From Paraclostridium sp. (GTDB lineage: Bacteria > Bacillota > Clostridia > Peptostreptococcales > Peptostreptococcaceae), in contig NZ_JBOFKN010000029.1 of the NCBI RefSeq assembly GCF_051657365.1, positions 1 through 42,715 of the forward strand: a stretch of 42,715 nt of DNA, written 5' to 3'. The translations under genes and the position numbers were made by a program. Positions 1-30,290 of the stretch are shown here, piece after piece; within the stretch, counting starts at the first letter, position 1, and every line of letters begins with the position of its first letter. The notes beneath the pieces are model-generated. The model was not told the DNA's origin, made no database searches, and saw only the letters and a list, made by a program, of their open reading frames with translations.

Positions 1-1
1 A

Positions 2-3000
2 CTAATAGATAAATCAATAAATTTAGTATTTAGAAAAACTAGAGAGATAATAACTAGCGAAGAATTTAAGCATAAAGCTATAACTTTTTATGGTATGAAT
101 TTATTTAATGGAGATATATTGGCCGATCATTATTCTACTATATCAAAAAGCGTTGAAGGTAGCATAAGTAAAATACTTGAAAGATATGACAAAGTATATG
201 ATAAAAATTCTGAAACTGTAGATTCTAATTATTCAAGAATAATAACATCTATTTTTAAATTATGTGTGATGGGAAATTCAAACATAAATAATACTAATAA
301 AAATAACTTCGGAACAGATGGATTGCACTCTACAATAAATGCTTCATTTACAAATGAATTTAATATAGAGCTTCAAAGCTTTTTAATATCATATTGTATA
401 TCAAGTTTATATATACCAAATTTAGCTTTTGAGAAAGCTGATTTAGGATTGGTATTACGAGAGAGTGCTCATTCGTTAATAGGACCTATATCAATTTCAG
501 CAATAGCATTGCAAGAGGAGTTGAATAGATTATTATTACAGAAAGTTATAACTAGCGAAAATGAAATTAGTATAGATAAAGAAAAAATAATGAAAATAGA
601 AGATATAAAAAGAAATATAAATGAACTTTTTGGAGAGGGATATTTTGATAAATTATTAAATTTTTCATCTGCTTTTAAAAGAGTTAATGGTCAAAATAAA
701 GATTTTCAAAGCATATATGGAATAAAAATATTTTCTGATTATGAAACTCCATTAGATTTCTTTGATAATATAATTAAAAGTACAACTGTATCTAAAAAAA
801 CTTCCGAGAGTATTAATAGAATACTTGAAAAAACTAATATTAAACAAGATGATTATGGGAAATATGGTAAAGATATTTTAGAAGATAAAAGTGTAAAAGA
901 AATTATAGATAATTTAGATGAAAATCAAAAGAGCATATATAACGAAACTATAAATGCAAAGATACCAGGAAACTCTAATCCAGCATATTTTATGAGTAAA
1001 ATGTTAATAGGGCAAACAAAAATGTATAGATCGTTTAAAGAAATAACAAGAATAATATCTTCCGATTACAGAAATATGATGCCAGACTTTGAAGTCTTGT
1101 TAATAGATGAAAGCAAAGTTGAACAAGCTTTATACGAATCATCTTATAGAAATATTTCTGATTATTTTGATATTTCAAATATCTATCATATATCAATCAA
1201 AAAAGATGATACTACAAATATTAAGAATGCTATTATAAAAATAGCGAACACAAGACCTTACTATGTTGATGCTAATTCGTATTTTAAAGAAATTGGTTTT
1301 ATGAATGATGATATAAGTGATACTGTGCTTTATAACAAGAAATTTGTAACAAATAGACCTGAAATTAGAGAAGGAATGGTTATAAATATATCTTTAGACA
1401 AAAATAATGATTATTATGATTTTACAGGAAGAATAAATTCTGTAGACATAAATTCAGGAGAAGTAACTATTTCATGTGTTAGTTTTGCATCAGAATTATT
1501 TAATAATATTACTGACGTTAATAATTATAAAAAATCTGGAAAACTTGGAAAAATAAGTTTTAATAGTTTTGTTAGTGAGGTGTCTAGTAAATTTGATAAT
1601 GCTAAAGAAATAGCAGCTTCAAAGACTTATAGAGATCCGAATTCTAACTTAATTCCTAAGGATGAAATAGCTGTTAATCTAAATGACAAAAGAGAGTTTA
1701 ATGTCGCTGGAACAAATGCCATTTTATATACAGCATTAGGAGATGTATTGTCGAGTGTTAATCATTTAAATTGTTCTTACAATCAACTTATATTCAATGA
1801 AAAAACATTATCTAAAACAGAAAAATATTTAAGAAATTTTAATTTTAGAGATGTGATAAAAAACTTTATTTCAGGTAAAGAAATAGCAAAAAACACACCA
1901 AATAGAATAGCTGAAAATATAACAAATACAGATAGAGATATTTGTTTTTATGGTATATCAGTAAAAGATGTGGATTTCTATGAAAATTCAAATCCATATG
2001 GAACTATAAGTACTAATAAAAAAACTGTATTTAATACATCTTCATTTATAATAGGTGATGAGATGGAAAATATTGGTAGCGATATATTTGCTTACCAACG
2101 AAAAAATGCGAGTTTATATGATATTTTAAATGATATAACACTAAGATCTCCTGGAACATTTTGGGAAGTTTATGAGAGTGGTAATTTTGCTACATTATTT
2201 TTTGGCAGAAATAATTATCAGTTGAAAAGGAAAAATAAAACATCATCATTAAATATCGAAGAAATTAACTCTATTTTTAAATATTTATTAGATACTATTG
2301 AAATTAATGGAGAACATGGACCAGAAAGTTATTATGTTTTCTACAACACTTTAAGAAGTGCAGCTAAAATATATGATAATACAATAGATTCTGAAGATGA
2401 ATATATACAGAAATTAGAAAAATTTACAGAAAATATATCAATACTAGAGTATGATGATATATCAAACAAAGTTTATGCTATTGCTGGATTTAATTTAATT
2501 AGTTGTAATATTCAAGTAAATAAGACTTGTCCTAATGTTATTAAATTTGAATATGATTCTACTTTATCTAGAAAAATAAAAGAATGGTTCAAGTTTACAG
2601 ATGGAAAAAGTATAGAACTTAAATTATTTGAGAATATTCCTGAAAGTGAAAAAAGAGTAAAGTATGTAGATTATAAGCAAATACCTTGTGTTCATACTCC
2701 TAAACAAGCCTATGAGGTAGCGCAATCAATAATGCATAACGAATTAAGGAATTATTATAGTGGAAAAATAGTTATGCTATATAATTCTAATATTAGAAAA
2801 AATACAGAAGTAACTATAATGGATACTAGAAATAAAATATTTGGAACGGTAGTAGTAAAAGACTATCAACACATTTTAGATTCTGAGATGGGATTAGTAA
2901 CAATAATAACTCCTGGAATGAAGACTAGAAGCACCTCATTAATGAGTGATATTTATTTGTGCGGTATTTGGCAAAAAATAAATTATGCATTACTTAGAGA

Positions 3001-4510
3001 TGAATTTATAAGTAACGTTAAGTATAAAGAGGAATTAGTTGGTAACATTACTGCTAAATCTTTAAAGGATAATTTTTTAGAGGCTATGAAACATTTAGAA
3101 GATATACCAATTATCATGAACAATGTTGGATATGATTTTGATGTTAATAGCTCTAATGAAAATGATAACTCTTATGAAGCTGAAGTAAGAGGGACTAGAA
3201 ATGCTAGTGAGTTGCCTTTTAAAATATATCCATTGATTAAAAATGGAATACCCATAATGCCAGATTCGACTATTTTTGGAAGTGCATCAACTCCATTTTA
3301 CTGGATAACAAATATAATGTTATCTTTTAGATATAAGTTTGTAGATTCTATTCTAAAAGAAGAAGCTAGAAATTTTATATTAGAAAATGTAAAGGATGCT
3401 TTTTCAGATAAGTTTAATTTATCAGATTATAAAGGAATTGAAAGGATTATAAAATTATTTAGTGCATTTGATAATCCAAATTTTATGAACGAAATAATGA
3501 GAGAAGATTATGAAGAACTACTATCAAAAGGAATTGAAGATAATACCTTGATTAAGTATGATGGTGATTTAGCAGCAAAACTTTGCTATGGTTTTCTTAA
3601 CTGTGCAAAGTTAAATAAGCTTGAAACTGAAAGAATAAAAAGAATAGCTAAAATAATGTTTCACTTCGAAATTGTTAATTTAGTTGAGTTAGATGGCAGA
3701 GATATTTTAGACCCTAAATCTAAATCTGATTTTAGTTTTGATATTGTTAATGATTTAAAAGAACAATTGGAATATTTTTCCAAGTTATATAATAAGCCTA
3801 TAAAGGAATGGACTATAATTTGTAAAGATAGATTGATAGATGGTGAACCTTATAAAATTGATGAAAATAACTGGTATGATGATATAGGAGCTGTTATAGT
3901 AAATCTTCCTGAAAAATTAGCTTTGAAAGCATTTACAAATAAAGGAACAATTAAATATAGTGCTTCTGTAGGTGTTGAAGGTAAAGAAAAAACTTCTGTT
4001 AGAAGAGGTTTGAGATACACACATAATTTAATAGATTCAAAAGGTAATTATAACTATGGAAAATCTAGTTCTGATATATGTGTTATTCATAATTATTATG
4101 GAGGAACTATTGATAGTTACGAACTTAGAAAGAGAATGTTAGATGATTTAATAAATAAATTTTTTGATAATACTAATAGAGAAAAAATTATATTTGGAGA
4201 TTTCAACTTACATTTAAGAACAGGACTTAATATATATACTGAAGCTAATAACAAAAATGAAAACTATGATATACCAAACTATACTCCACTTATTTATAAA
4301 GGATATACAACTGCTGGTAAAAAATTATATGACAATATTGTTGTTGATAATCTATCAATTGGAGGATTGAGTACAGTATTTAGATATTTTAACTCATCAT
4401 CTGAAGAGTATTTTAAGACTGGAAGTGAATTGTTTGTATCGGATCACTTTCCAATATTCTTAGTTATTAATGATAACTATAAAAAAGATGTATTTAAAGG
4501 AGTAATATAA
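2..4510 (+). CDS. Giant virion-type structural protein, 5' partial. The reading frame is open from position 2 and the first in-window ATG is at 95. C-terminal endonuclease/exonuclease/phosphatase (EEP, DNase I/sphingomyelinase-like) domain at about nt 3780-4507.
   Basis: Long uninterrupted ORF with no in-frame stop back to nt 2. C-terminal motifs IIFGDFN and SDHFPI match the EEP superfamily signatures GDxN and SDHxP. Coding strand and composition match the downstream genes, and the ORF abuts gene 2 (4510/4511). Confidence 0.85.
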   Translation, partial: LIDKSINLVFRKTREIITSEEFKHKAITFYGMNLFNGDILADHYSTISKSVEGSISKILERYDKVYDKNSETVDSNYSRIITSIFKLCVMGNSNINNTNKNNFGTDGLHSTINASFTNEFNIELQSFLISYCISSLYIPNLAFEKADLGLVLRESAHSLIGPISISAIALQEELNRLLLQKVITSENEISIDKEKIMKIEDIKRNINELFGEGYFDKLLNFSSAFKRVNGQNKDFQSIYGIKIFSDYETPLDFFDNIIKSTTVSKKTSESINRILEKTNIKQDDYGKYGKDILEDKSVKEIIDNLDENQKSIYNETINAKIPGNSNPAYFMSKMLIGQTKMYRSFKEITRIISSDYRNMMPDFEVLLIDESKVEQALYESSYRNISDYFDISNIYHISIKKDDTTNIKNAIIKIANTRPYYVDANSYFKEIGFMNDDISDTVLYNKKFVTNRPEIREGMVINISLDKNNDYYDFTGRINSVDINSGEVTISCVSFASELFNNITDVNNYKKSGKLGKISFNSFVSEVSSKFDNAKEIAASKTYRDPNSNLIPKDEIAVNLNDKREFNVAGTNAILYTALGDVLSSVNHLNCSYNQLIFNEKTLSKTEKYLRNFNFRDVIKNFISGKEIAKNTPNRIAENITNTDRDICFYGISVKDVDFYENSNPYGTISTNKKTVFNTSSFIIGDEMENIGSDIFAYQRKNASLYDILNDITLRSPGTFWEVYESGNFATLFFGRNNYQLKRKNKTSSLNIEEINSIFKYLLDTIEINGEHGPESYYVFYNTLRSAAKIYDNTIDSEDEYIQKLEKFTENISILEYDDISNKVYAIAGFNLISCNIQVNKTCPNVIKFEYDSTLSRKIKEWFKFTDGKSIELKLFENIPESEKRVKYVDYKQIPCVHTPKQAYEVAQSIMHNELRNYYSGKIVMLYNSNIRKNTEVTIMDTRNKIFGTVVVKDYQHILDSEMGLVTIITPGMKTRSTSLMSDIYLCGIWQKINYALLRDEFISNVKYKEELVGNITAKSLKDNFLEAMKHLEDIPIIMNNVGYDFDVNSSNENDNSYEAEVRGTRNASELPFKIYPLIKNGIPIMPDSTIFGSASTPFYWITNIMLSFRYKFVDSILKEEARNFILENVKDAFSDKFNLSDYKGIERIIKLFSAFDNPNFMNEIMREDYEELLSKGIEDNTLIKYDGDLAAKLCYGFLNCAKLNKLETERIKRIAKIMFHFEIVNLVELDGRDILDPKSKSDFSFDIVNDLKEQLEYFSKLYNKPIKEWTIICKDRLIDGEPYKIDENNWYDDIGAVIVNLPEKLALKAFTNKGTIKYSASVGVEGKEKTSVRRGLRYTHNLIDSKGNYNYGKSSSDICVIHNYYGGTIDSYELRKRMLDDLINKFFDNTNREKIIFGDFNLHLRTGLNIYTEANNKNENYDIPNYTPLIYKGYTTAGKKLYDNIVVDNLSIGGLSTVFRYFNSSSEEYFKTGSELFVSDHFPIFLVINDNYKKDVFKGVI

Positions 4511-5068
4511 ATGAGAGAAAGTAAAATGATAAAAAATATAAGTTTTGATAATTTTTTATATGGTGGCTTAATATATCATCATAAAGATGTTGTTGATATA
4601 GATGAAAGAAATAGAATTTTAGAAGAAACGATATCAGCTTCAGAAGGAAATGCTACAGATAACAATGTCTCCATAGATAATCTATACATGTTAAAAGAAC
4701 AATTGGAGTTTATAAAAAATTCTCAATCATTAACGGCAACAGCAATGCAGAAGACATTAGATATAATAAATACAGATAATAAAAGCAAGCATCCTTTGGA
4801 TAAGGTATATAATAGTGAATCTAAAGAAGAAAACGTTTTTGTAGGTGATAACATACAAATAATATCAGGAGATATAATAATATTTTTAAATCATAACGGT
4901 ATGCTAGGAGACATTTATAATCATAAAATTCCTAATCAAAAATTGTGTATATCATATGAGTATGATGTGAATTTGGATATTTATGTCGGTAGGGTTTTTG
5001 ACCAAAAGTTATTAGAAGATTTTAAGGAATACTCTAATAAACTAAAAGAGGTGTATAATAATGCCTAA
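4511..5068 (+). CDS. Hypothetical protein (185 aa)
   Basis: ATG at 4511 preceded by AAGGAG at about 4497-4502, directly after the stop of the giant gene. Overlaps the next gene by 8 nt (coupled). Confidence 0.8.
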   Translation: MRESKMIKNISFDNFLYGGLIYHHKDVVDIDERNRILEETISASEGNATDNNVSIDNLYMLKEQLEFIKNSQSLTATAMQKTLDIINTDNKSKHPLDKVYNSESKEENVFVGDNIQIISGDIIIFLNHNGMLGDIYNHKIPNQKLCISYEYDVNLDIYVGRVFDQKLLEDFKEYSNKLKEVYNNA

Positions 5069-5408
5069 TTTTTTAAAAAATGATTATGAAATAAATAAAC
5101 CAAAAAGAATAAATGCCGATGAAGTTATTAGTAAAAAAGTTTCAGATACAAATTTTTTTAGTAATTTTGGAACTCCTTTTACTACGAGTACAAGTTCTGC
5201 ATCTGGAATAACAGAAAGTGTAATCACTCCTGGGATAAGATTTTTAAACTTTGCTTGTTCGATAATGAAACTGTATAAAAACTTACAATATAATTACAAT
5301 GCAATAGAGCAAAAATTAAAGAAAGTAGAAAGTATACTAAATTCGTACAATAAAGGGGAGTTCAAACATATAAGAAAAAATATAGTGAAAAAAAGTTCTA
5401 AATTCTGA
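5061..5408 (+). CDS. Hypothetical protein (115 aa)
   Basis: ATG with AGAGGTG RBS upstream. Overlaps the upstream stop. Followed by an intergenic region with a terminator. Confidence 0.7.
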   Translation: MPNFLKNDYEINKPKRINADEVISKKVSDTNFFSNFGTPFTTSTSSASGITESVITPGIRFLNFACSIMKLYKNLQYNYNAIEQKLKKVESILNSYNKGEFKHIRKNIVKKSSKF

Positions 5409-5475
5409 ATTTGTGATAAGTATATTAAGTTAGATAAATACTTTGAAATATTAACATTTCAACTAAAAAACATTG

Positions 5476-5504
5476 TTGACTTATAAAAATAAATATGTTA
5501 TTAT
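5476..5504 (+). promoter_or_regulatory. Sigma70-like promoter candidate TTGACT-N17-TATTAT
   Basis: TTGACT at 5476-5481 and TATTAT at 5499-5504 with 17-nt spacing in the intergenic region. The genome is AT-rich, so chance matches are common. Confidence 0.25.
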
Positions 5505-5564
5505 TTCAACATACGGATGTAAAAAAAGTTGAATACTGCTGTAGAAGGGGTTTTATGGCAAACA

Positions 5565-5603
5565 AAAAAAGACGAGTTTTAAAAGCTCGTCTTTTTTTAT
5601 TTT
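5565..5603 (+). terminator. Rho-independent terminator (AAAAAGACGAG...CTCGTCTTTTTTT)
   Basis: Inverted repeat AGACGAG/CTCGTCT with A/T extensions, followed by a T-run, downstream of the 115-aa gene. Confidence 0.6.
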
Positions 5604-5656
5604 TTGTATTTTTAATTTAAAATTAAAATATCACAAAAATACAAGAGAGGTACTAA

Positions 5657-6826
5657 ATGATAATTAATTATTCAGAAGAAAAATATATGGAATTATTAGT
5701 AGAGCATTTGAATTTATTGGGATATGATACATCTAATAAATCTAACATAATTGATGTTATAAAATGTTTAGCTAAAGTGGATAAAAAAAATATTGATAAA
5801 AAAAATAAAATATTAAACTCATTGAATTTCGAAAATAGAACAGGAGAAGAACTTGATGAAATTTTAAATTTTTTTGGTTTAAAAAGATTTAAAAATTATA
5901 GCGATATAAATAAAAGTTGTTTAATCTATAACTATGGAAAAATAGATATTTTATTAAAAGAAAATACAGTTATAAAGTATAAAAATGGAAAATTTTTGAA
6001 TTCTATTGAACAAAAAATAAAAAGTGGATCAGAAAATACAATCCACTTTCAAGTTTCAAATTCAACTCTTTCTGACAATTATGATTTTTTAATTTTAGGA
6101 GATTTTAAAATAGCTTTAAATGGTATAGAAGTTCACGAGGTAAATGATTTAGAGAATAAAATAAAATACCTTGAGGAAAATTTAGGTTTTTTAAAGTTTA
6201 ATGATACAGAAACTAAGGAATCAGATATAGAATTTTTTAATAGAGCTAGTTCTGTATTACAAACTTATGGAGATAGTAATATAAGAAAAATTAAAAATTA
6301 TATAAAAGGAATAGAAGGAGTTTCAGATGTTGTAGTAAACGAAGAATACGATAATATAAAAGTAGTCATAATTCCAGTTAATTTAGTGTCTTTAGATAAG
6401 ATTTTAGATCAATCAAAAGAAGCTGTAGAGTACTTTGCTACTTCACATATAGAGATTATTAAACCTTCTGTAATGGAAATAGAAATTGATGGGATATATA
6501 GTCAATTATTAGAATGGTTTTCAAATGATAAGGAAATTGATTTAAAGAAGATTATATCAGAATTAGAAATACAATTAACGTATTATCTAAAAGAATTATA
6601 TTTTTCAAATAATAAAAAAATAAGTAGGGATGTAATAGAGTTTATAATTAATAAATATTTTACAGATAATAAAATACAGTTTTCTTTAAATGAAAGAAAA
6701 TTAAATGTTAATTTTTTTGTATTTTCATCAAATGATTATGAGCATCCTATAGTTGTTGGAGAACTATTACCTAGAAATTCAAAAGAATTATTAGCTGATA
6801 TTTGTATAATGCGTGGTGTTAAATAA
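5657..6826 (+). CDS. Hypothetical virion structural protein (389 aa). Position and size are compatible with a baseplate component, but this is not verifiable from sequence alone.
   Basis: ATG at 5657 with AGAGAGG RBS. First gene of a long coupled series. Its stop overlaps the next start (TAATG at 6826). Confidence 0.8.
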   Translation: MIINYSEEKYMELLVEHLNLLGYDTSNKSNIIDVIKCLAKVDKKNIDKKNKILNSLNFENRTGEELDEILNFFGLKRFKNYSDINKSCLIYNYGKIDILLKENTVIKYKNGKFLNSIEQKIKSGSENTIHFQVSNSTLSDNYDFLILGDFKIALNGIEVHEVNDLENKIKYLEENLGFLKFNDTETKESDIEFFNRASSVLQTYGDSNIRKIKNYIKGIEGVSDVVVNEEYDNIKVVIIPVNLVSLDKILDQSKEAVEYFATSHIEIIKPSVMEIEIDGIYSQLLEWFSNDKEIDLKKIISELEIQLTYYLKELYFSNNKKISRDVIEFIINKYFTDNKIQFSLNERKLNVNFFVFSSNDYEHPIVVGELLPRNSKELLADICIMRGVK

Positions 6827-8454
6827 TGTCTACTATAACTGCTAATAAAGGATTATATAAAATAAATAAAAATTTTAATTCTGAAATAAAAAAAATATTT
6901 GGAGAATATTTTAAAAGTAGATTGTACGAAAAGCTTGAATTAAAAAGGATAAAAGAAAATGTATTTTTTAAAGAAATTAATACAGATTTGTTATATGTTT
7001 CTGATGAAACTATTATTGATAGCTTAATAAAAGCTGGATATGATGAGACTGATTATCAAAACTATACATCTACAGTGCATAATTCTATTGAATTTATAAA
7101 AGATTTAGAGGAATCAAAATTTGTAAGTTATGACAATAGTATTGTTTTAAATGGAAGAAAAGTTATTGTAAATAAAAATAAAAATAAGATTTCATTGATT
7201 TATGAAGATAGATACGAATTATTATTGTTTGGAGAATATGAGGCTAAGGTTATAAATAATTTTGTAATAAATTCAGAAGGATTTATTTATATGGTAATAA
7301 CTGATAATAATTCTGATAAATATTTTATAAGATCACATTTAAGTTTAGAGTTTTTTAGGTATAACTCTTCTCATAACTGTATGACTAAATTGGAAGAAAT
7401 AGAGTGTTTATTTAAAGAGAAAATAAATGAAAATATTAAAGAGATAATTTTTGATGATGATAATGGAGTAAACTTTATTTCTGATAATTTAAGTATAAAA
7501 AGGATTGAATTTGGAAGAAAATATTTTTTTAGAAAAGATGAAAATGTATTCTTTAATAAAAATAATTTTGTTCCAAATGTAGAACTACAAATAATCCAAG
7601 TTGAACACTTGCATTTGTATGACTGGATATCTTTCCTTGGATTAAATAACTTTGTTAATGATAAAGGGTTAAAGTTAAATAGTGAATTTATTGAAAAATT
7701 TAAAAATATAATAAGATTCAAATTTGACGATACGTTAAATGGTGCATTAAACTATTATGATTTTTATGATGAAAAAGATTATAAGGTAGATTTCTTTCAA
7801 GATGGCATAGAGGTTGTTGGTAACTTCAAATATGGATACTTTGAAAAGGGAGATTACACGCTAAATATAAAGGTAATAAATAAAAAATATAATGGAGAGT
7901 TTGAAGTTATATTAGACCTTATAAGAGATAATAAAAATCTAAAGAGGTTGGTATGTACAACAGTAGATAGAGTTATTTATTTTTCTAATTTAAAATTTAA
8001 TTTTGTTTCATTTGATTATTTAGATAATATTGTAACTTTGAAAATAAATATTAAAGATGATTATTCTGTAAAAAGCACTAGGAGCTATGTTGGAATTAAT
8101 TCTGAAATTAAAATAACTGATTTTGATAGGCTTATAAAATTAGATCAAGTTTTAAGGAACGAGAATATAAACAAAAAACAGCTAATAGATGTTGAGTTCA
8201 TAGATAATTTTCTAATAATAAAAAATTATGCTAAAAATAGTTCTGAGAGAATGTTTGAGTCAGATTTTAAAATTAGATTAATTGAAGATGATGGAACTCC
8301 TACTGTTCTTTGGAAACAGATAAAAGATAAGGATTATTTTATAAACTTTAATAACTATTGTGTTAAGAAAGTAATAAAACCAACTAGAAAAATAAAGCCT
8401 TTATTAAAAAGTAGTTCAATTAATTTTAAATTGGATTTAAAAAAAGGAGAGTAA
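6826..8454 (+). CDS. Hypothetical virion structural protein (542 aa)
   Basis: ATG overlapping the upstream stop by 1 nt. Ends 3 nt before the GTG start of the 2,800-aa gene. Confidence 0.8.
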   Translation: MSTITANKGLYKINKNFNSEIKKIFGEYFKSRLYEKLELKRIKENVFFKEINTDLLYVSDETIIDSLIKAGYDETDYQNYTSTVHNSIEFIKDLEESKFVSYDNSIVLNGRKVIVNKNKNKISLIYEDRYELLLFGEYEAKVINNFVINSEGFIYMVITDNNSDKYFIRSHLSLEFFRYNSSHNCMTKLEEIECLFKEKINENIKEIIFDDDNGVNFISDNLSIKRIEFGRKYFFRKDENVFFNKNNFVPNVELQIIQVEHLHLYDWISFLGLNNFVNDKGLKLNSEFIEKFKNIIRFKFDDTLNGALNYYDFYDEKDYKVDFFQDGIEVVGNFKYGYFEKGDYTLNIKVINKKYNGEFEVILDLIRDNKNLKRLVCTTVDRVIYFSNLKFNFVSFDYLDNIVTLKINIKDDYSVKSTRSYVGINSEIKITDFDRLIKLDQVLRNENINKKQLIDVEFIDNFLIIKNYAKNSSERMFESDFKIRLIEDDGTPTVLWKQIKDKDYFINFNNYCVKKVIKPTRKIKPLLKSSSINFKLDLKKGE

Positions 8455-8457
8455 AAA

Positions 8458-11400
8458 GTGAAACAAGATGAAAAAAACGTTTTAGACAGCTGTGCTATAG
8501 TTGGGTATGATAGTGGAAATATTCTATTTAAACAAGAAAATGGAATTTACTTTAGAGAGCCTATTCGTACAACTATAAGCAATGGTAGGAAAGTAAACAA
8601 TATACTTAAATGGATTTTAAACAACAAAGAAACTAATTATAGTTTGGTTGCTGATGTAAGCAATTATTTAGAGGATTTTGATTCCACATATGAAAATAGG
8701 ACGTTTTTTACAAGAGAGCATTTTTCTTTAACAGGAGGAGATGATTCGATAAGTGTAAATGGTAATTATATGGGTGGAACATCAGGAGTTAAGTATAATG
8801 TAAAGACTATAAACTGGTTTAAGTTGGAAATAAAAGACGTTGTTGGTTCAAGTGGAGACGTAACTATAATTGTCGAGTGTTGTGTTGATAATGTAAATTG
8901 GATTGAATTTGGTTCTGTAAGATTTAATGCTATGCAAGGTATAGATTTAGGAGGAAGTGGAGCGGATAAGACTCATACTTTTAACAATACTATTGAGTGT
9001 CCTAACAGGAACTTTAAGTATAGATTTAGATTTACTGGTAATGGTCATATAAGTTGTAAAGAAGGTGATCCTTGGTGGTTTAGTTCTGGAGGTGTATTTG
9101 TATTAGATGAAAAGTACATTCCGAATGAAGATATAGAATATAATGTTGGAGTAAAATCTATAACAGATTCACATATAGAGTTCACAAGAACGCTAGCTCA
9201 TAAAAATGGATTTTACGGAGAAACTAGCATTTCTAAAAGAAATCAAAAACAACATATAAAACTTTATTTAGTTTATTCTGGTAATACTAAATATGTTTTA
9301 CTTGATGAAGTTTATACAGATACATTTGTGGATAACTTGTATTTTGGACAAATAGAGGAAAGTAAGTTTTTATTAACAAAAAAGAGTGATTTAGAGATAC
9401 CGAAGTTTTCTTTAAACTCCAAAATAAAGCAATTGCTTTATACAAAGAATGATATTTATATAAATAAAAATATATTATCTAGGGGTACAAAATTATCTGA
9501 TTTTGGATTTAAAATATCTAGCAATTCATCTTTATTTGATAGTTCTTGTAATAAATTAACTGAAGATATAAACAATTCTAAATTGAAGCTTAATGTTAAG
9601 AAAGATATTAGATTTGATAATTTTATTAGTGGCATAGAAAATGAAATTGATGTAGATTTTTTAGATAATAACAATAATCTCATATTTGCATCTAAAGTAT
9701 TTTTGGACTCAACAAATAAAATTAGTGATGGAATTATAGTAGATAAAATAAAGAAAAGTAAAACTAGATATAAGGGTAGTTTAATTATATATGATTCGTA
9801 TAATGAAGAATTATTAAACTTAGTCGATTCTTTATCATCTTGTTCTAAGACTCCTCAAACAGTTTTTCTATTCTGTACTAGCAGCAATAATTCTAATGAG
9901 TTAGATTGTGTTATAGATAAAAATACAATAGGCTTCTCAGCGTTTAAAGACAATGTTATTGATAAAGTAAAAAAACAAAATGGATTTTTATTTCAAAATA
10001 TTAATTTAGCTATTGATAAAGTTGGTGAAATTGTATCTAGAAAATTATCTGAAGACACTATGAATACAGTAAATAACTTAGTAGGATTCAATGTATATAA
10101 CTTTACAAATTTGAGTACAAGTGATTATATGAATGACTATGGATATTATACAAATGAATTTAAAAATGGGTTTAATGTTAATAATCCTCAAATAACATTT
10201 ATAGGTCAATCTACTAATAATTCATTAGATGGAATAACTCAATTTGATATTTCAAAACCTTTTGAATTTGAAGCTAACTTAAATAAAATAGAAACTAATT
10301 TAACTTCTGATATGTTAAACGAAAAGAGGTTATTTCCAGGAGTCGATAAGCCGTACTATAGCGTTTCCATAGTACATAATGAGAATGTTTTATATTCTTA
10401 TATAGTCGGTAGAGATAATGTAGAGATGATTGATAACGATAACAAAAATAAAAAATATTCTATCTTTGTTGAAAACAAAAAGGTTAAGGTTAAATATAAT
10501 GAAAATTTAACTGAAAAAGATAGAGGAAAGAATAATGTGTTTATAGTTATTAAGAAAAATGATTGTATTATAAATTCTTATAAAGCTGAATTTTTAGTTG
10601 ATTATGCAGAGCCTATTGTAGATAGATTTGAACTTAATGTTTCAGATATAGTAGAAGAAACTAATTATCAAGGTAAAAATGAATTGGTTTATTCTAAAGA
10701 TAATTTCTTTAAAGTTAGCATGAACCTAAGTGCTAATTATGAATTTAGAAAAGGAGAATATCAATTAGAACTTAGATATTCAAAAAATAAAAATTATAAA
10801 ATAATAAGGCCACTTGAGGGATATTATCAATCTAAAATATATAATATTCATTTGGACGAGTTATCAAACGAATCAGCTCCAGATGAGAAAATAAAATTTG
10901 GTGATTGGGAATGTATGCTTGTTAGAAATAGATATAGTTATTCTATAAAAAATTCAACTCATAATATTCCTTTGGAAATAGATAATGCTTTAAGTATAAA
11001 TGCAGTTCCTATGGAACCAGACTTTGATGATTTTCAAAACAATGGTTTACAACAAGGTAAAGATGTATATATAACGTTGAAATTAATAAATTCTGATTAT
11101 TATAAAAAAATAAAAGATATTATAACTTTTGTTAAAGAAGTTAGATTTTTATCAAATAATGTTGATTTTACATCTAAACAAGGATATTTCACTTATTTAG
11201 ATGAAAATAAGCTAGGTTCTGATAATTCTTTATCATTTATAACAGCACACCAAAATTCGTTAACTCTAGATAATAGGAACGAAATGAGATGGTTTATAAG
11301 TGGTACTTCTGAAAATGAATCAAATAGATTTCTTAATAGCATAGCTAACTTAGATTCTGGATCTAAGAAACCTAAAAATATAAAAATAAATTTAGTTTTA

Positions 11401-14400
11401 TTTACAGGTGAAATAATAGAAACACAAACTGTAACTATAGGACACGCAGGAAAAGTTGCTGCTCCAATTTTATTAGGAACTTCAGAGCATTTAGATAAGC
11501 TTAAAATGTTAGAAGCTAAAAAGAATGGAGTAACAGTAGATCAATTGACTCAAGAACAGTTGATAGCTATTGATGAGTTATGGAAACAGTTGGGTACATA
11601 TAACTACAATAACCAACATATAATAAATGGAGTTAAAACATTTGCTTTTTATTCTAATTTAATGGAAATGAAATTTGATTTTGGAATAGCTGAGTATTAT
11701 ACAATATCGCAAGCCAACAATAATACAGAGATGTTGCCAGTTACAAAAGATGGAGTTGTTAGATATATAATAAACCAAGATGGAATAGATGAAAACGGAA
11801 AAGGTATTTTAACAATAAAAGGATATGTTAAGTTAGCAGATGGTACTATAAACTCTTCTAATGAAGTTGTAATAACTTTTTATAGAAAAAGATTTCCTTC
11901 AATGGTTACTACAGGTGATGATTATACAAAATATGTATTTTATGAAAAAGATTCAAGTGACTATTACGCATTGAAAACTGTTATACAATCAGAGTTGAGA
12001 TTAGAAAATCTTAATGGAACTTATGACTCATCAAGAATAGATCATATAAAAGTTGAACTTGTAGATGTTGATAAAAGAACTGTTATTGCTGAGGGACCAA
12101 TAGTTAAATTTTATGATGGGTTTGTTCCTCAAAGATTTATATTCGATACGGGTTTAACTGATGATGATTTAAATAAACTAAATCCTGAAGAGAGATTCCC
12201 AATAGAGAATACAAAGGAATATATAGAACTTGAAAAAATATTAAATGATAAAATATTTAAAGATGGAAGACACCTAGGGCAAATATTTTATTTGAGATTT
12301 AAAGCAGTAGAATCTATCAAAGATGCTTATGATGTCGTTAAAGATATAAATGGTAAGGAGAGCTTTTATCCAATAATTTTTACTGAGAAATTAGAAGAAT
12401 TAAAGATAATCCCTTCAAATGGAATAATAGTTATAGATAATGATAATAATCAAGATTTATATACTTATAAAAATAAAGTTGCTTTTATGTTAGAAAGTAA
12501 CAATGCTGAATACTTTATGTATAGAACTGATAGAGCTGCAAGTTTTCAAAAAGTTTATCCTAAGAGTGTAGGATACTCGAAGCTACTAAAAATAGTTGTA
12601 TCAACTTATGATGTAGGAAATCACTTCCTAGAAGTAAAACAGAAGGCTGAAGGTGAACCAGAATCTAATGTTTATTCAGTTATTGTTGAAAAAATAAAGC
12701 CGACATCACCACCTAAAATATCAGGTGATGATTTAATAGATGAAAATGCAAAATGGTTATTACATCCAGTAGATAATGCTCTAAAGATAAAAACTAGCAT
12801 AATAACAGGAGATTCTGAACATTCTCAAGTTGTTTCTAGTGCAATGCCTTATGAAGTTTACATTCAACCAGATAAGAATCTAGATATAGGTTATCACGCA
12901 GTTAAAGCGATAGCAGTTGATAAAATAAACAATGAAAGTGAACCAACATATTTTTTAACAAAAAAGATAGGACGTCCAATAGCGTCAAATGTTATAGGAA
13001 CTGAAAAAACTTCAGATAATGTAATATCTTGGGAATGGGAATCTCAACATTTTGATGGTGTTAAAGAATATTTAGTTGAAATAAATGGAATTGAAAAAAC
13101 TATAGTTCCAGTAAATAGGTATGGAACAACTGAATATTATATGAGATTTTTCCAAGGTAAAGAGTTAAGTGATGGAACATACGAAATAAGAGTATGGGCT
13201 GTAAATGAACTTGGTAACAAAAATTACATGAGTTCAGATTTTATAACTAAAAAAGGAAGCAAAATAAAAGAATTATCTGTTGAAATGTATAAATTTAAAG
13301 ATAATTATACCAATAGACTAGAAGCTAAGATAGTTACCGAAGATAAAGCTATAAAAGAGTTTGAATATGATATTCTTAGAAATGATAACGGTAAAATAAC
13401 TTCTGTAACAGGAACTATGAAGACTAATCAAAAGATTTTACCTTTTATAATGGAAAATGGAGAGAAAGTTATTTTAGATGATGGTACATACTATTTAGCT
13501 GTTAGAGCTATAAACTATATAGATGAAAAAACTGACTATGTTAGAATACCATTCATATTCAAGAAAACTCCTCCAGATAAACCATACATATATTTTCAAA
13601 GGTTGTTAAAAAGAACAATACCACTTGTATTTGTTAAACCTTCTACTGAGATACCTATTCTAGCAATAGAAATAAAAATAGGAGATAAACCTTTTGAAAA
13701 AGTTAGAAATAACGTATGGAGACCTAATTACAATTTACCTTTAGGAATAAATAATATCCTTATTAAAGTTACTGATTATGCAGGAAATCAATCTGAATTT
13801 TCAGACTTTATAGAGATAACAAATAAAGGTGTTAATATGTTCCAGGAAGATTTTGTAGTTGATATGAGTAATCCAGTATTAACATTTGATTTTAATTTAC
13901 CTGAAATGATAGTTTATGGCCATACTAATTTTTTAGTAGAAAATGAACAACTTGGTGTTTCAGTTGTAGTTGATGTTAGCAATGCAAATAATATAGAGAT
14001 ACCTCTAACTTATTCTAACGATAAGATTCTGCCACCAGATGGTGTATATCCATTTGTTATAAAGTTATATGATTCAGATTCTAAAGAATATTCTTATATA
14101 GGTGATGTGTTTTATGTAACTATAGATAGCTACGAACCTATAAAACCTTATTTTTTGAATAGTGGGTATTCAAATATAGAATATAATAAGTTTTATACAC
14201 AGAATAGGAATCCTAAATGGTTATGGCAAACTAGACAAAATATAGATGAATTAAAAGAATTTATTGTTAATTTATATGAGTTTTCTAACAATGAGAATAC
14301 TTATGTAGATTATGGTACTGGACAGTTTAAGGATTATTCAACTAAGTTGATAGGACAATTTCAAGTTCCAGGAGATTTAGCAGATGGATCTTATAAACTT

Positions 14401-16860
14401 ACTGCAAAAGTTATTGGAAAGAACGGTCTTGAAAGTGCTAATGAAGAGTTTACATTTGTTGTTAAAAATAGTTTTCCTGCACCACCACGTTTCGATTTAA
14501 ACAATCCAATAAATAGAAAATATGAAAATAGAAATAAAAATGTTATGTGGAAGTGGGAAGATACTAATAGTAATTGGGACGAATTCGTCTCTTATAAAGT
14601 CAAAATAAATGATGAGGAATTTACTGAAGAATTTTCAGCATCAAAAACATATTATGAAGAAAAAAGAATTTTAAAAGATGGACCTAATAAAATAATGGTT
14701 ATAGGAAAGGATAAGGCAGGTAACTGGTCAACGGCAAATGAAACTACTGCTGGAATGCTTGGAGCTAATTATTTATCTAATACAAAGATGATAGATACAT
14801 CAAATCCAATACCTCTAACAGATAAAGATATAAAGGTACTTATAAAAGATTCTTCTACTTTTGAAATTTTCTTTGAAAGAAAAAAAGCAGATAATGAATA
14901 TTATATGTTCGAATTAATATCTCCGAATTCAGATGGAAATGATATAAAGTTTGTAGTTGGAAATACATTAGATAAAACATTTACTGAAGAAATATATTTT
15001 AGAGAAGAAAAGGTTATTCCAGGGTTAGAAATTGGAGAATTAAATGGAAAGCTAGGTTATTGTGAAATAAAAGATAACTCAGATACAGAAGATGATAAGA
15101 GTTTATACTTTACAAACCTATTACCTAATACATATACATTTGTTGTTAGCACTATAGATTATGCAGGAAATAGTTCTCAAATTTATACGAAAGTAATTGA
15201 ATTGAAAGATTTAACTAGAATAAAACCAGTATTTGTATATCCAAAAGAAACGTACACAAATAATAATACAATAATATTCCAATGGATATTAACTGCTGAT
15301 AATATAAAAAATTGGGAATATCAATTAACAACTCCATATAATTCGAGTGTTGCTGATTTAGTTAATCCTAGTAAATGGAGAAGTTTAAATGAGAATAGCT
15401 TCAAGTTGAATAATATACCTAAAGTTGTAGCAGGTAATGATGCAGATGGAGAATATACATTCTATGTTAGAGCTGTATTTGATGAAACAGTAGATGAGGC
15501 TGGTACAGGTCAAATAGTAAATAAAAAATCTGATATCTCGTCAATAACTGTCGTTCTTGATAGAAAAATACCAGGAGGAATAATTTTTACAAATAAACAA
15601 TTCACTACTGATAATTCTGTATTGAGATGGACTTGGGACTACACTTCATCTGGAGATATAGCTAGTGGAACATATGTTACATTTAATCCGAATTTACCAA
15701 TTACAGAATGGGAAAAAATAGAAAATAAAAAAGAGTATGAATCGTATCAAGAAAGAGAAGATGGTGTTTACACTTTATATGCTAAGACTTTTGATTTAGC
15801 TGGGAATATAAATAACACTATATACGAAAGTACAATAGTGTTGGATAGAATACCGCCGTTTAAACCTATTATAAATGGTGGAAGCAATATATTTACAAAT
15901 ATAATTCCAACAATTTCTTGGGAAAATGATTTAAATTATTTTAGATATGCTTGGCTAGTTATGACGATTGAAGAGTTCAATGCTTTTAAATCTGTTTATG
16001 ATAGACTTGTTAATAATGAAAACTATACATTAACTAATCATGATTGGAAATTTATTTTTTCTAAATCAGATATTGATAAAAATAATGTAAATGAAAGTAT
16101 AATTGAATTAGAAAGTCTATTTAGGAAAAATGAGTTTTTAATTGAAAATACAGTAACCATAAATAAGACTATATCTAAAAATGGAATATCAGAGGAAGGA
16201 AGCTATGTATTTATTCTAAGCGGATTTGATCCAAGTAATAACTGGTCAGAAGAGTTTGAATACCAATTTATAACTTACGACATAACTGCTCCTGATGTTA
16301 CTCTAATGAGATTTATAGAGCCTACATATGTAATAACTGATGAAAGACGTCCTAGATGGGTATGGGAAGTTCCTTATGATGTAACTAGATGTGAATATGT
16401 ATTAGAAAAAAATGGATATTCGGATGGTAGTATTGTAGGAAGTATAACCAAAGCAGCAGATGATGGAATATCTAATATTACTTATGAATTTAGACCTCAG
16501 TTCAATTTAACTTCTGGTAATTACAGATTGGTTGTCAATTGTTATGATTCTTCTAATAACTACGTTCAGATTAATAAATCAATTACATTAGAGACTGATA
16601 GTTCTTCACTTGAAAAAGAATTCCAAGATATTATTTTACCTGGACAAAATAATAGAATAAGAATTCAGAAAAATAAATACTCAGATACATATATTATAGT
16701 TGATATAGATATAGATAAAAATTCAACATTAAGCTATAGACTTATAGATAAAAATTCAAATAACAAAGAGTTTTTAATTTATGAAATAGGTAAAACTGAG
16801 CTTCAGATGAACTTAGAATATGAATTTAATATATTAACGTATAATATAGAAATTAATTAA
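8458..16860 (+). CDS. Giant structural protein (2,800 aa). Cys/Trp-containing N-terminal beta-rich region, with a C-terminal half of about 12 tandem fibronectin-type-III-like repeats. Probable tail/baseplate host-interaction protein.
   Basis: 8.4-kb uninterrupted ORF with GTG start at 8458 and AAGGAGAG RBS at 8441-8448. Repeated W..W ... Y.(I/L)(R/A)V.A.D.AGN.S patterns such as YEIRVWAVNELGN, VTDYAGNQSEF, TIDYAGNSSQIY and FDLAGNINNT. Confidence 0.85.
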   Translation: MKQDEKNVLDSCAIVGYDSGNILFKQENGIYFREPIRTTISNGRKVNNILKWILNNKETNYSLVADVSNYLEDFDSTYENRTFFTREHFSLTGGDDSISVNGNYMGGTSGVKYNVKTINWFKLEIKDVVGSSGDVTIIVECCVDNVNWIEFGSVRFNAMQGIDLGGSGADKTHTFNNTIECPNRNFKYRFRFTGNGHISCKEGDPWWFSSGGVFVLDEKYIPNEDIEYNVGVKSITDSHIEFTRTLAHKNGFYGETSISKRNQKQHIKLYLVYSGNTKYVLLDEVYTDTFVDNLYFGQIEESKFLLTKKSDLEIPKFSLNSKIKQLLYTKNDIYINKNILSRGTKLSDFGFKISSNSSLFDSSCNKLTEDINNSKLKLNVKKDIRFDNFISGIENEIDVDFLDNNNNLIFASKVFLDSTNKISDGIIVDKIKKSKTRYKGSLIIYDSYNEELLNLVDSLSSCSKTPQTVFLFCTSSNNSNELDCVIDKNTIGFSAFKDNVIDKVKKQNGFLFQNINLAIDKVGEIVSRKLSEDTMNTVNNLVGFNVYNFTNLSTSDYMNDYGYYTNEFKNGFNVNNPQITFIGQSTNNSLDGITQFDISKPFEFEANLNKIETNLTSDMLNEKRLFPGVDKPYYSVSIVHNENVLYSYIVGRDNVEMIDNDNKNKKYSIFVENKKVKVKYNENLTEKDRGKNNVFIVIKKNDCIINSYKAEFLVDYAEPIVDRFELNVSDIVEETNYQGKNELVYSKDNFFKVSMNLSANYEFRKGEYQLELRYSKNKNYKIIRPLEGYYQSKIYNIHLDELSNESAPDEKIKFGDWECMLVRNRYSYSIKNSTHNIPLEIDNALSINAVPMEPDFDDFQNNGLQQGKDVYITLKLINSDYYKKIKDIITFVKEVRFLSNNVDFTSKQGYFTYLDENKLGSDNSLSFITAHQNSLTLDNRNEMRWFISGTSENESNRFLNSIANLDSGSKKPKNIKINLVLFTGEIIETQTVTIGHAGKVAAPILLGTSEHLDKLKMLEAKKNGVTVDQLTQEQLIAIDELWKQLGTYNYNNQHIINGVKTFAFYSNLMEMKFDFGIAEYYTISQANNNTEMLPVTKDGVVRYIINQDGIDENGKGILTIKGYVKLADGTINSSNEVVITFYRKRFPSMVTTGDDYTKYVFYEKDSSDYYALKTVIQSELRLENLNGTYDSSRIDHIKVELVDVDKRTVIAEGPIVKFYDGFVPQRFIFDTGLTDDDLNKLNPEERFPIENTKEYIELEKILNDKIFKDGRHLGQIFYLRFKAVESIKDAYDVVKDINGKESFYPIIFTEKLEELKIIPSNGIIVIDNDNNQDLYTYKNKVAFMLESNNAEYFMYRTDRAASFQKVYPKSVGYSKLLKIVVSTYDVGNHFLEVKQKAEGEPESNVYSVIVEKIKPTSPPKISGDDLIDENAKWLLHPVDNALKIKTSIITGDSEHSQVVSSAMPYEVYIQPDKNLDIGYHAVKAIAVDKINNESEPTYFLTKKIGRPIASNVIGTEKTSDNVISWEWESQHFDGVKEYLVEINGIEKTIVPVNRYGTTEYYMRFFQGKELSDGTYEIRVWAVNELGNKNYMSSDFITKKGSKIKELSVEMYKFKDNYTNRLEAKIVTEDKAIKEFEYDILRNDNGKITSVTGTMKTNQKILPFIMENGEKVILDDGTYYLAVRAINYIDEKTDYVRIPFIFKKTPPDKPYIYFQRLLKRTIPLVFVKPSTEIPILAIEIKIGDKPFEKVRNNVWRPNYNLPLGINNILIKVTDYAGNQSEFSDFIEITNKGVNMFQEDFVVDMSNPVLTFDFNLPEMIVYGHTNFLVENEQLGVSVVVDVSNANNIEIPLTYSNDKILPPDGVYPFVIKLYDSDSKEYSYIGDVFYVTIDSYEPIKPYFLNSGYSNIEYNKFYTQNRNPKWLWQTRQNIDELKEFIVNLYEFSNNENTYVDYGTGQFKDYSTKLIGQFQVPGDLADGSYKLTAKVIGKNGLESANEEFTFVVKNSFPAPPRFDLNNPINRKYENRNKNVMWKWEDTNSNWDEFVSYKVKINDEEFTEEFSASKTYYEEKRILKDGPNKIMVIGKDKAGNWSTANETTAGMLGANYLSNTKMIDTSNPIPLTDKDIKVLIKDSSTFEIFFERKKADNEYYMFELISPNSDGNDIKFVVGNTLDKTFTEEIYFREEKVIPGLEIGELNGKLGYCEIKDNSDTEDDKSLYFTNLLPNTYTFVVSTIDYAGNSSQIYTKVIELKDLTRIKPVFVYPKETYTNNNTIIFQWILTADNIKNWEYQLTTPYNSSVADLVNPSKWRSLNENSFKLNNIPKVVAGNDADGEYTFYVRAVFDETVDEAGTGQIVNKKSDISSITVVLDRKIPGGIIFTNKQFTTDNSVLRWTWDYTSSGDIASGTYVTFNPNLPITEWEKIENKKEYESYQEREDGVYTLYAKTFDLAGNINNTIYESTIVLDRIPPFKPIINGGSNIFTNIIPTISWENDLNYFRYAWLVMTIEEFNAFKSVYDRLVNNENYTLTNHDWKFIFSKSDIDKNNVNESIIELESLFRKNEFLIENTVTINKTISKNGISEEGSYVFILSGFDPSNNWSEEFEYQFITYDITAPDVTLMRFIEPTYVITDERRPRWVWEVPYDVTRCEYVLEKNGYSDGSIVGSITKAADDGISNITYEFRPQFNLTSGNYRLVVNCYDSSNNYVQINKSITLETDSSSLEKEFQDIILPGQNNRIRIQKNKYSDTYIIVDIDIDKNSTLSYRLIDKNSNNKEFLIYEIGKTELQMNLEYEFNILTYNIEIN
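12690..16580 (+). repeat. Array of about 12 tandem FN3-like domain repeats (about 90-130 aa each) inside the 2,800-aa gene
   Basis: Periodic recurrence of the FN3 hallmark residues: Trp in strand B, Tyr in strand C, and a Y.xVxAxDxAGNxS F/G-strand motif. Repeats are diverged at the nucleotide level. Confidence 0.6.
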
Positions 16861-28468: not shown

Positions 28469-29107
28469 ATGTCACAACAATTAAAAAAAATCACACTTTT
28501 ATCGAACGCTTTAGATGTTAAAGAATTAAGAAAAGCACTTGCTGCAATTGATCTTAAAAATGCAACAAAAGAAGAATTAGCAGCAGTTCAAACGCAAGTA
28601 AATCAAATTATTCAAACATTAACTGTTGATGATACTTCTTTAGATACTCTACAAGAAATTATCACATTCATCAAAGCTAACAAAACTTTATTAGATAACT
28701 TAGCTATTGATAACATCTTAGGATTAAGAACTGCTTTAGATGCAAAAGCTGAAACTACTGCATTAACTGCTTTAGAAACAAATATTAGAGAAGAGTTAAC
28801 AACTTTAGAAAATGATTTTACAGCAGCAATAAACACTGTGAATGCTAATATTGAAAAAGTAAAAACTGATTTATCTGGTGTTATGACTGCAGATAAAAAT
28901 GAGCTAAAGACATCTATCACAAAAGAAACTACTGATAGAACTGCGGCTAATTCTGAAATTGTATTCGGATCTAAAACTAAACCAGAGTCTATACCTACAT
29001 ATGATGAGACTTCTCACGTAATTGGAGATATTGTTGTAGATGCTGAAGGGAATCTTTGTATTGTTGAAGATGCACCAGCAAGTCAATCTAAATTTCCATT
29101 AAAATAA
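28469..29107 (+). CDS. Coiled-coil fibre-like protein (212 aa), compositionally distinct (Ala/Thr-rich, higher G+C than neighbours)
   Basis: ATG with AAGGAGAAAAAT RBS. Leu/Thr/Ala heptad-rich sequence. Followed by a very strong terminator. Confidence 0.75.
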   Translation: MSQQLKKITLLSNALDVKELRKALAAIDLKNATKEELAAVQTQVNQIIQTLTVDDTSLDTLQEIITFIKANKTLLDNLAIDNILGLRTALDAKAETTALTALETNIREELTTLENDFTAAINTVNANIEKVKTDLSGVMTADKNELKTSITKETTDRTAANSEIVFGSKTKPESIPTYDETSHVIGDIVVDAEGNLCIVEDAPASQSKFPLK

Positions 29108-29114
29108 TTTTTAT

Positions 29115-29145
29115 AGGTGTGTGTTAATTAACACACACCTTTTTA
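29115..29145 (+). terminator. Rho-independent terminator, perfect 26-bp palindrome AGGTGTGTGTTAATTAACACACACCT plus T-run
   Basis: Seen directly; 11-13 bp stem, followed by TTTTT. Confidence 0.75.
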
Positions 29146-29166
29146 ATAAACCATAGAGGTGAGTGT

Positions 29167-30219: not shown

Positions 30220-30226
30220 TTTTTTT

Positions 30227-30260
30227 AAGGTTATCGCTTATATTGGTGATAACCTTTTTA
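30227..30260 (+). terminator. Rho-independent terminator AAGGTTATC...GATAACCTTTTT
   Basis: 9-bp inverted repeat plus T-run, 8 nt after the stop at 30219. Confidence 0.6.
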
Positions 30261-30290
30261 TTAAAGTAAATAAGGAGATGAAAACTATTT

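Follow-up and report, generated by a model that had tools for sequence, protein, structure and literature searches.

A giant, probable baseplate hub protein ending in a predicted DNase I-family nuclease domain

The window analysed here, positions 1–42,715 of contig NZ_JBOFKN010000029.1 (42,715 nucleotides, nt; RefSeq assembly GCF_051657365.1, Paraclostridium sp.), opens inside a giant gene on its + strand. The 3′ 71% of this gene (nt 2–4510, residues 611–2112 of 2,112) lies in the window, and its 5′ 1,830 nt fall outside it. We are confident that the gene encodes a baseplate hub, and we regard it as practically certain that the C-terminal domain of the protein has an EEP fold. This domain very probably belongs to the DNase I family and is likely to be catalytically active. 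The reading that we favour, by a modest measure, is that of a metal-dependent DNase tethered to the hub at the tail-tube tip and acting on DNA outside the cytoplasm, in an element that would be a large contractile-tailed phage kept as a circular plasmid in Cetobacterium somerae.

Nucleotides 2–4510 (+) translate into 1,502 codons without an internal stop, closed by a TAA at 4508–4510; the listed open reading frame (ORF) from the first ATG covers 95–4510 (1,471 amino acids, aa). With a local G+C content of 25%, a random codon is a stop with a probability of ~0.10, and a run of 1,502 codons free of stops would arise by chance at ~1e-69; the longest open stretch in the remaining five frames over nt 2–4510 is 73 aa. 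The original prediction, made from the letters of the window, held that the frame is open from nt 2 and that the protein is longer than 1,471 aa. A homologue search bore this out, as the window protein matched residues 611–2112 of a 2,112-aa protein of C. somerae plasmid p3 (CP143322.1) with four substitutions. The plasmid record (CP143322.1 / NZ_CP143322.1) is circular, 188,661 bp long, and comes from a pure culture isolated from catfish intestine; the product is annotated as a hypothetical protein. Direct evidence and homology together indicate a layout of a ~950-aa N-terminal region, a hub module, an acidic linker, and the EEP domain.

The EEP domain covers ~315 aa (nt 3548–4507, +) and includes a β-hairpin insertion at domain residues ~129–159. 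It had been recognised as a C-terminal domain from the motifs IIFGDFNLHL and VSDHFPI, both of which are present and invariant in homologues, but its length had been put at ~240 aa. Its start lies ~75 residues upstream of that estimate, and three N-terminal EEP motifs had been overlooked: the Asn of ‘FLNCAKL’, the Glu of ‘NLVELDG’, and the His of ‘VIHNYYG’. An AF2 model of the domain (predicted local distance difference test score, pLDDT, 82; predicted template modelling score, pTM, 0.86) has the four-layer α/β sandwich of the EEP fold. A Foldseek search with this model returned 137 PDB matches at E ≤ 1e-3, with DNase1L3 and DNase I the best (~1e-10).

Alignment with DNase I accounts for each of the expected catalytic positions, all on the + strand. 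Domain residue N18 (nt 3599–3601) corresponds to N7 in the metal site, E47 (3686–3688) to the metal ligand E39, and D112 (3881–3883), which is Glu in most relatives, to E78, the partner of the catalytic His. H181 (4088–4090) corresponds to H134, D218 and N220 in the Asp-Phe-Asn of GDFN (4199–4207) to D168 and N170, D262 in the Asp of ‘YDN’ (4331–4333) to D212, and D299 and H300 in the Asp-His of SDHFP (4442–4447) to D251 and H252. In the AF2 model the catalytic positions sit at the ends of predicted strands.

These positions are also strongly conserved. When the last 320 residues of seven homologues were aligned (32–100% identity), N18, E47, Y110-D111-D112, and H181-N182 were invariant, as were D218, N220, T254-T255, Y261-D262, and S298-D299-H300. 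In a deeper EEP alignment of nineteen sequences, with identities down to 16%, the N, E, H, D-x-N, T, and S-D-H-x-P elements remained invariant, and a ‘[KD]-E-[FY]-G’ motif with an invariant acidic residue was apparent. Among the EEP-bearing cluster representatives, H181, D218, N220, D262 (Glu in two), D299, and H300 were kept in 37/37, and the catalytic N and E were kept in every representative where they could be aligned. Conservation of all catalytic positions at 16–25% overall identity argues for an active enzyme. The original prediction would have been undone by the absence of an EEP fold or by loss of the catalytic residues; structure prediction and fold search instead confirm the fold, and the Asn/Glu/His/Asp-x-Asn/Asp/Asp-His set is intact.

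Within the EEP superfold, profile comparisons point to the DNase I family. With a profile of seven EEP sequences, the sole match among solved EEP enzymes was DNase I (E = 0.028), with GDFN, YD, and SDHYP in register. The corresponding hhalign alignment was reliable in its C-terminal half and misregistered in its N-terminal half, and the deeper nineteen-sequence profile fixed the register. This profile matched DNase1L3 at E = 2.8e-13 (53 bits) and DNase I at 7.5e-8 to 1e-7, with 255 of ~260–280 residues aligned. Its match to exonuclease III was partial (1.7e-4, 70 residues), the LINE-1 endonuclease scored 4e-3, and the Listeria sphingomyelinase SmcL (1zwx) scored E = 0.16 (14.6 bits), so that full-length similarity to the DNase I family is stronger than to other EEP families. 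Foldseek gave the same ranking, with sphingomyelinase at 7e-6 vs DNases at 7e-11. The weak NCBIfam matches of single clade members were all to nucleases: MnuA membrane nuclease (8.9e-5), CdtB (4.9e-4), and Xth (2.9e-3).

At the residue level, global hhalign pairs H181, D218/N220, Y261-D262, and D299-H300 with DNase I H134, D168/N170, Y211-D212, and D251-H252. Both catalytic His residues, their acidic partners, and the equivalents of N7, E39, D168, N170, and D251 are present. The ‘TT’ motif is conserved and aligns with DNase I T202/T203, and the Arg of ‘VRRGL’ may match R111, a pairing drawn from sequence alignment. The original prediction had offered a list of nuclease, phosphodiesterase, phospholipase, or sphingomyelinase activities; the sequence profiles clearly favour a DNase I-type nuclease over the sphingomyelinase and phospholipase options.

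The likeness to bovine and human DNase I and DNase1L3 thus comprises full-length profile similarity, the top Foldseek matches, and a common set of catalytic and metal residues. Identity to DNase I is ~13–15%, however, and the EEP domain has a ~30-residue β-hairpin insertion and longer loops. DNase I is a secreted monomer, whereas the EEP domain is part of a 2,112-aa structural protein. CdtB toxins and Mycoplasma MnuA are EEP nucleases of DNase I-like type whose action lies outside the cell that makes them, and their NCBIfam similarity to the clade is weak, below the family cut-offs; unlike the EEP domain of a hub, they are stand-alone secreted or membrane proteins and not virion components.

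The hub assignment comes from the remainder of the protein. A search of 1.84 billion cluster representatives with a profile of its last 1,101 residues yielded 299 proteins at E ≤ 1e-3, and we mapped the domains of eighty-two. These fall into three groups: (i) giant proteins of 2,100–2,400 aa with a conserved core and the EEP domain, (ii) proteins of 810–1,340 aa in which the core comes first and the EEP domain last, and (iii) many proteins of ~1,900 aa that have only the core in common. The combination of hub and EEP domain occurs in at least thirty-four clusters at 50% identity. The core common to all giant hub relatives (nt 2069–2983, +) has the pattern ‘...LR.PG.FW.V.ESG...TLFFGRNNY ... YYSGKIVMLY.PNIRKNTEV.IMD..NKIFGTVVVKDYQHILDSE.G..TIITPG’. 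An alignment of thirty-two core sequences had one match among solved structures, PDB 9EUF chain E (E = 5.4e-4), and two of the thirty-two weakly matched Pfam YQBQ-like (1.7e-3).

9EUF chain E is hub protein gp110 (ORF56) of Staphylococcus phage 812/K, which has gp27-like channel domains I–IV, a clamp domain, and a C-terminal CHAP ‘cleaver’ (PMC13433997). A lid covers the cleaver before the baseplate fires; afterwards the cleaver travels on the tube tip (PMC13433997). The sole solved structure matched by the core profile, gp110 is the architectural model for the giant protein, from which it differs in its length (808 aa), in its CHAP peptidase acting on peptidoglycan, and in its Gram-positive host.

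A tblastn search with the core of a group (iii) protein led to annotated ‘baseplate hub protein’ genes of two cultured jumbo myophages, Acinetobacter phage ME3 and Bacillus phage 0305phi8-36. The close-family hub profile scored 51 bits against the ME3 hub, and a broad hub profile scored 181 bits against ME3 and 105 bits against 0305phi8-36 ORF147. ORF147 (1,903 aa) and ME3_37 of vB_AbaM_ME3 (2,329 aa) have a homologous hub core and a similar size of ~2,000 aa. They likewise follow a giant tape-measure-like gene and precede small baseplate genes, and all of these hubs carry enzymatic cargo. They differ in lacking the EEP domain and have no detectable sequence similarity to the window protein outside the core.

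We place a gp27/gpD/XkdQ-type hub module at residues ~960–1610 of the 2,112-aa protein. The conservation profile shows a further block ahead of the core (nt 1049–1531, +), with the pattern ‘PDFEV..IDE...DDTTNIK.AIIKIAN...INISLD....YDFTG.I.SV.I....V.I.C.SFASELFN’ and invariant columns in the alignments; it recurs in the consensus of twenty-five giant hub relatives, and by motif resemblance it is the putative N-terminal β-barrel half of a gp27/gpD-like hub. After the core, the motif ‘PFKIYPLIKNG.P.MPD’ (nt 3215–3265, +; invariant alignment columns) also occurs in EEP-less hub relatives and is placed in the acidic linker (isoelectric point 4.6) between hub and nuclease. A profile of the whole hub region gave only a spurious match against the PDB, the whole protein and its neighbours had nothing above threshold in Pfam, PHROGs, or the PDB, and a word-index homologue search with the EEP alignment had no match. 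We rejected a tape measure protein as an identity for the gene, given that hubs are the homologues of its conserved core and that the region upstream holds another, separate giant gene. The earlier description of a giant virion-type protein with a place in the baseplate is supported by homology to the hubs of jumbo myophages and phage 812 and by synteny, and can be refined to a hub protein specifically.

What follows the hub core varies among relatives. The 0305phi8-36 hub has NlpC/P60 and M23 domains there. ME3_37 (3784–10773 of the examined vB_AbaM_ME3 segment) has a Peptidase_M23 domain and an SNase domain (PF00565; residues 1126–1241, E = 4.7e-14, above the Pfam cut-off) on which the record is silent. 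Among twenty-five core-only relatives, M23 was found in ten, SLT in three, and VanY in one. The predicted EEP domain occupies this post-core slot, which holds peptidoglycan hydrolases in relatives. Since the enzymes vary in the slot, the hub family carries what are by prediction exchangeable envelope-acting enzymes, with the putative EEP DNase defining one clade; a predicted nuclease of an unrelated fold, SNase, has been recruited at least once more, in the ME3 hub. The fusion had been called unusual. This is true among hub relatives, which carry peptidoglycan hydrolases, but it is no one-off, for the EEP domain is conserved in the whole clade.

The clade itself has some variety. One homologue (P0006, on a 27-kb contig) has a Peptidase_M15_4 domain (PF13539) after the EEP domain, at residues ~2310–2529, so that a predicted nuclease and a peptidoglycan peptidase would follow one another at the C-terminal end of the hub. 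On a 214-kb metagenomic contig (L005, 4734–12715) the hub is split into a 1,756-aa Peptidase_M23 gene and a 904-aa core-plus-EEP gene with a 4-nt overlap. From this split, the ‘short’ hub–EEP proteins are probably the C-terminal halves of split hubs, not minimal hubs. Domain searches detected no peptidoglycan hydrolase in the Cetobacterium giant protein. Separately, an EEP fold is present in BFVD entry W6PNE5 (485 aa), which is labelled a ‘predicted tail fiber protein’ of the cultured Citrobacter phage CR8 and matched our model in Foldseek (E = 4.6e-8); EEP folds in BFVD otherwise come mostly from giant viruses. Annotation may understate how widely EEP domains occur on tail proteins.

The surrounding genes appear to be arranged as in phages with annotated hubs. 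Four genes of 185, 115, 389, and 542 aa (nt 4511–8454, +), the first ATG of which abuts the hub stop codon, form a conserved module beside the hub gene. Their orthologues adjoin the hub gene of homologue P0007 (phmmer E 5e-33 to 1e-83), and the 389-aa protein is also conserved near the short hub–EEP gene of L005 (E = 1.8e-20), although a homologue search and a profile search against the PDB gave no family for it. From their position, we presume that the four encode baseplate components. We considered the 185-aa gene as an immunity gene and rejected this, because in L002, a related contig, it is found on the other flank of the hub gene and on the opposite strand. Next comes a 2,800-aa protein with immunoglobulin-like (Ig-like; Big_13) repeats (nt 8458–16860, +), orthologous to a 2,924-aa protein in L002 and probably the giant fibre or adhesin of the hub module. 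Tail-fibre genes lie at 28469–32480. The placement of the giant gene at the head of a baseplate/fibre module, as originally proposed, agrees with this order of hub gene, conserved gene module, and tail-fibre genes.

On CP143322.1, the region upstream of the window (1–9922 of the examined segment) holds a giant gene in two ORFs (2,093 aa and 1,148 aa) split by a 360-aa GIY-YIG endonuclease gene. The two ORFs are collinear with residues 219–1859 and 1887–3030 of a single 3,258-aa gene in L002, and the split may be a homing-endonuclease or intron insertion in a presumed tape measure gene. The depositor-annotated order in 0305phi8-36 is tape measure (detected in the virion by mass spectrometry), hub, gpV-like, and gpJ-like. 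The order here is parallel, running from the split giant gene through the hub, the 185/115/389/542-aa module, and the Ig-like protein to the fibres, with flanking families that have no assignment. The order agrees with those in 0305phi8-36, ME3, and L005, and L005 continues downstream of its split hub with small genes, the 389-aa orthologue, and a fibre with Peptidase_S74. On metagenomic contigs of 56–214 kb, the hub gene keeps its synteny with both the giant gene upstream and the module downstream.

Other parts of the element carry genes of a different kind. Positions 92055–122638 of NZ_CP143322.1 encode ParA, a tubulin-like protein, and a helix-turn-helix (HTH) regulator, a set that suggests a phage-plasmid lifestyle. 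The same region has a complete type I restriction-modification system and an FRG-domain gene beside the giant structural genes, and a MazG-domain gene. In the window, an SPFH/Band 7 domain protein (34930–36450, −; E = 8.6e-20) starts a divergently oriented block, and the neighbouring 273-aa ORF (36871–37692, −) has a sub-threshold Terminase_6N match (E = 6e-4). No tRNA genes were found in the window. The structural genes of the element are nearly all invisible to Pfam and PHROGs, and across window positions 1–42715 the fibre genes alone score.

On the reading that we favour, a trimer of the hub would close the tube tip and three copies of the nuclease would hang from it on the acidic linker, after the paradigm of phage 812 and T4. 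Firing of the baseplate would expose the nuclease domains or carry them forward with the tube tip. The enzyme, a metal-dependent and non-specific DNase, would then cut DNA that it meets on or within the cell envelope during adsorption or penetration. This could be extracellular or matrix DNA, DNA bound to the surface, lysis debris, or periplasmic DNA; cutting of host DNA after penetration would be less likely. Action outside the cytoplasm is favoured because DNase I and SNase are alike secreted nucleases that depend on Ca2+. A role for the EEP domain on extracellular DNA is a possibility that we take seriously but would stop short of calling probable. What we infer is that the domain is catalytically active, that the protein is in the virion and sits at the tube tip, which substrate is cut, where and when this happens, and what the biological benefit is.

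A bacterial counterpart of such an arrangement is the evolved VgrG spike, in which an enzymatic domain is delivered by sheath contraction, the effector following a gp5-like spike. Evolved VgrG proteins and the nuclease effectors of type VI secretion systems (T6SS) and other contractile injection systems offer no more than an analogy, in that a gp27-like carrier with a covalent enzymatic domain is delivered by a sheath. T6SS are bacterial weapons whose effector comes after a gp5-like spike and acts in the target cell, whereas here the carrier would be a phage hub whose channel also passes the genome.

Several observations weigh against this reading as a whole. A non-specific DNase placed where the phage's DNA leaves its channel would have to be masked or regulated, or the DNA modified, and the analysis turned up no such safeguard. 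A hub lies enclosed in the middle of the baseplate, hardly the expected place for an enzyme that degrades matrix. The element is known solely as a plasmid record and could be defective. With regard to the enzyme, the Pfam EEP models (PF03372, PF14529, PF22669) stayed sub-threshold, at 12.8–13.8 bits vs cut-offs of 24.5–27.4 (E 0.05–0.1); the best clade member reached E = 3.9e-4, and the domain is a predicted divergent EEP member that current Pfam models do not capture. The DNA-contact arginines of DNase I are not conserved: R9 is Ala in the window protein and Lys, Arg, or Gln in relatives (many of them Lys/Arg), and in alignment with DNase I the R41 equivalent is absent from the EEP domain. 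Y110 aligns with DNase I Y76 in the window protein but varies within the clade. The C173–C209 disulfide is absent as well, its aligned positions being non-Cys (‘GKKLYD’ vs ‘NCAYD’); this disulfide is not universal in the wider DNase I family. With regard to the hub, the match to the solved hub 9EUF is local (53 residues), and the AF2 model of the hub region (nt 1019–3091) has a pLDDT of 37 and is unusable, so the gp27-like fold is not confirmed by structure. Searches of Pfam, PHROGs, ME3 and 0305phi8-36 proteins (phmmer), and PDB profiles assigned none of the neighbours to the gpV, gpW, or gpJ families, and the same searches yielded no tape-measure family for the upstream giant gene.

The same fold, profile, and conservation evidence would serve equally for an active nuclease that is injected as an effector and attacks host chromosomal, plasmid, or competing-phage DNA, in takeover or exclusion, as T6SS nuclease effectors do. 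In phage 812 the tail tube, with the hub at its tip, is reported to reach 10–30 nm into the cytoplasm, and hub proteins share homology with proteins of the VgrG type, for which the carriage of effector domains is known (PMC13433997). We nevertheless consider injection unlikely. A tethered trimer would have little reach, and the phage's own DNA would pass directly beside the nuclease. By established enzymology, DNase I-family enzymes and SNase need Ca2+ at extracellular-type concentrations. No immunity or DNA-modification gene was identified adjoining the hub gene, and in L002 the downstream module is on the other side and strand. T4 gp27, moreover, is thought to stay at the inner-membrane pore (PMC13433997). 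The domain could instead hydrolyse an envelope phosphodiester (phospholipid head groups, links in lipopolysaccharide or capsule, or teichoic-acid-like polymers) and so ease the passage of the tube through the envelope, as peptidoglycan hydrolases in this slot do. Relatives have cell-wall enzymes there, the CR8 ‘predicted tail fiber protein’ has an EEP fold, and a spike-borne phosphodiesterase-like domain of phage 812 has been proposed to act on teichoic acids (PMC13433997). This appears quite improbable to us: the profile prefers the DNase I family over sphingomyelinase by >10 orders of magnitude (2.8e-13 vs 0.16), the His partners typical of DNase I (E78 and D212) and the ‘TT...YD’ motif are conserved, the NCBIfam matches are to nucleases only, and the ME3 hub independently holds another nuclease fold.

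Two further explanations would remove the enzyme or the virion from the account. The EEP fold could be catalytically dead and kept as a structural or binding module, such as a DNA- or receptor-binding knob; the weld protein of phage 812 offers a precedent as a CHAP fold without catalytic residues (PMC13433997), and the sub-threshold Pfam scores would fit. The catalytic and metal positions are kept across thirty-seven representatives at down to 16–25% identity, however, as expected only under selection for catalysis, and we find a dead domain very hard to credit. Slimmer still is the chance that the giant protein is no part of a virion, and is a plasmid-borne toxin or surface protein that shares a domain with hubs. 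The record is annotated as a plasmid, with ParA, a tubulin-like gene, and type I restriction-modification, and most of its genes are hypothetical. Against this, homology to the hubs of cultured myophages spans the whole hub module, synteny is conserved on the 56–214-kb metagenomic contigs, and tail-fibre genes and a weak terminase-like match occur in the same window.

We found no tblastn match for the full protein and two short hub–EEP forms among 50,697 phage records. Plasmid p3 is the sole plasmid record with a homologue, all other members being metagenomic, and cluster names throughout the EEP clade are absent or ‘hypothetical’. A literature search, non-exhaustive and limited by a slash-containing family name that is unsearchable as a phrase, brought up no account of a phage hub, tail, or virion bearing an EEP, DNase I, or SNase domain. 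An enzyme-armed hub is already known; the DNase cargo and the clade are new. Enzymes so far described on hubs and tail tips cut peptidoglycan or polysaccharide. We suggest tentatively that virion-borne DNases, in the EEP clade and independently as the ME3 SNase, are an unrecognised class of tail-tip enzyme, with the nuclease needed for infection.

The clade marks a large uncultured phage group, one with structural genes that current Pfam and PHROG models fail to see, and it is a possible source of virion-tethered anti-biofilm DNases. Because the Cetobacterium host strain is in pure culture, induction and biochemistry are feasible, and the SNase of the ME3 hub, a homologue from a cultured Acinetobacter phage, suggests convergent recruitment and offers a tractable experimental system. 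A conserved, apparently active DNase on the ring through which the genome exits is counter-intuitive, and it raises the questions of which DNA is cut, how the phage's own genome is spared, and whether the enzyme lets large phages infect cells in DNA-rich biofilm, mucus, or lysis debris. If the reading is true, the nuclease would cut a way through extracellular DNA (biofilm, mucus, lysis debris) or act as an injected effector against the host or competitors, and a mechanism that shields the phage's own DNA as it leaves through the same hub would be implied.

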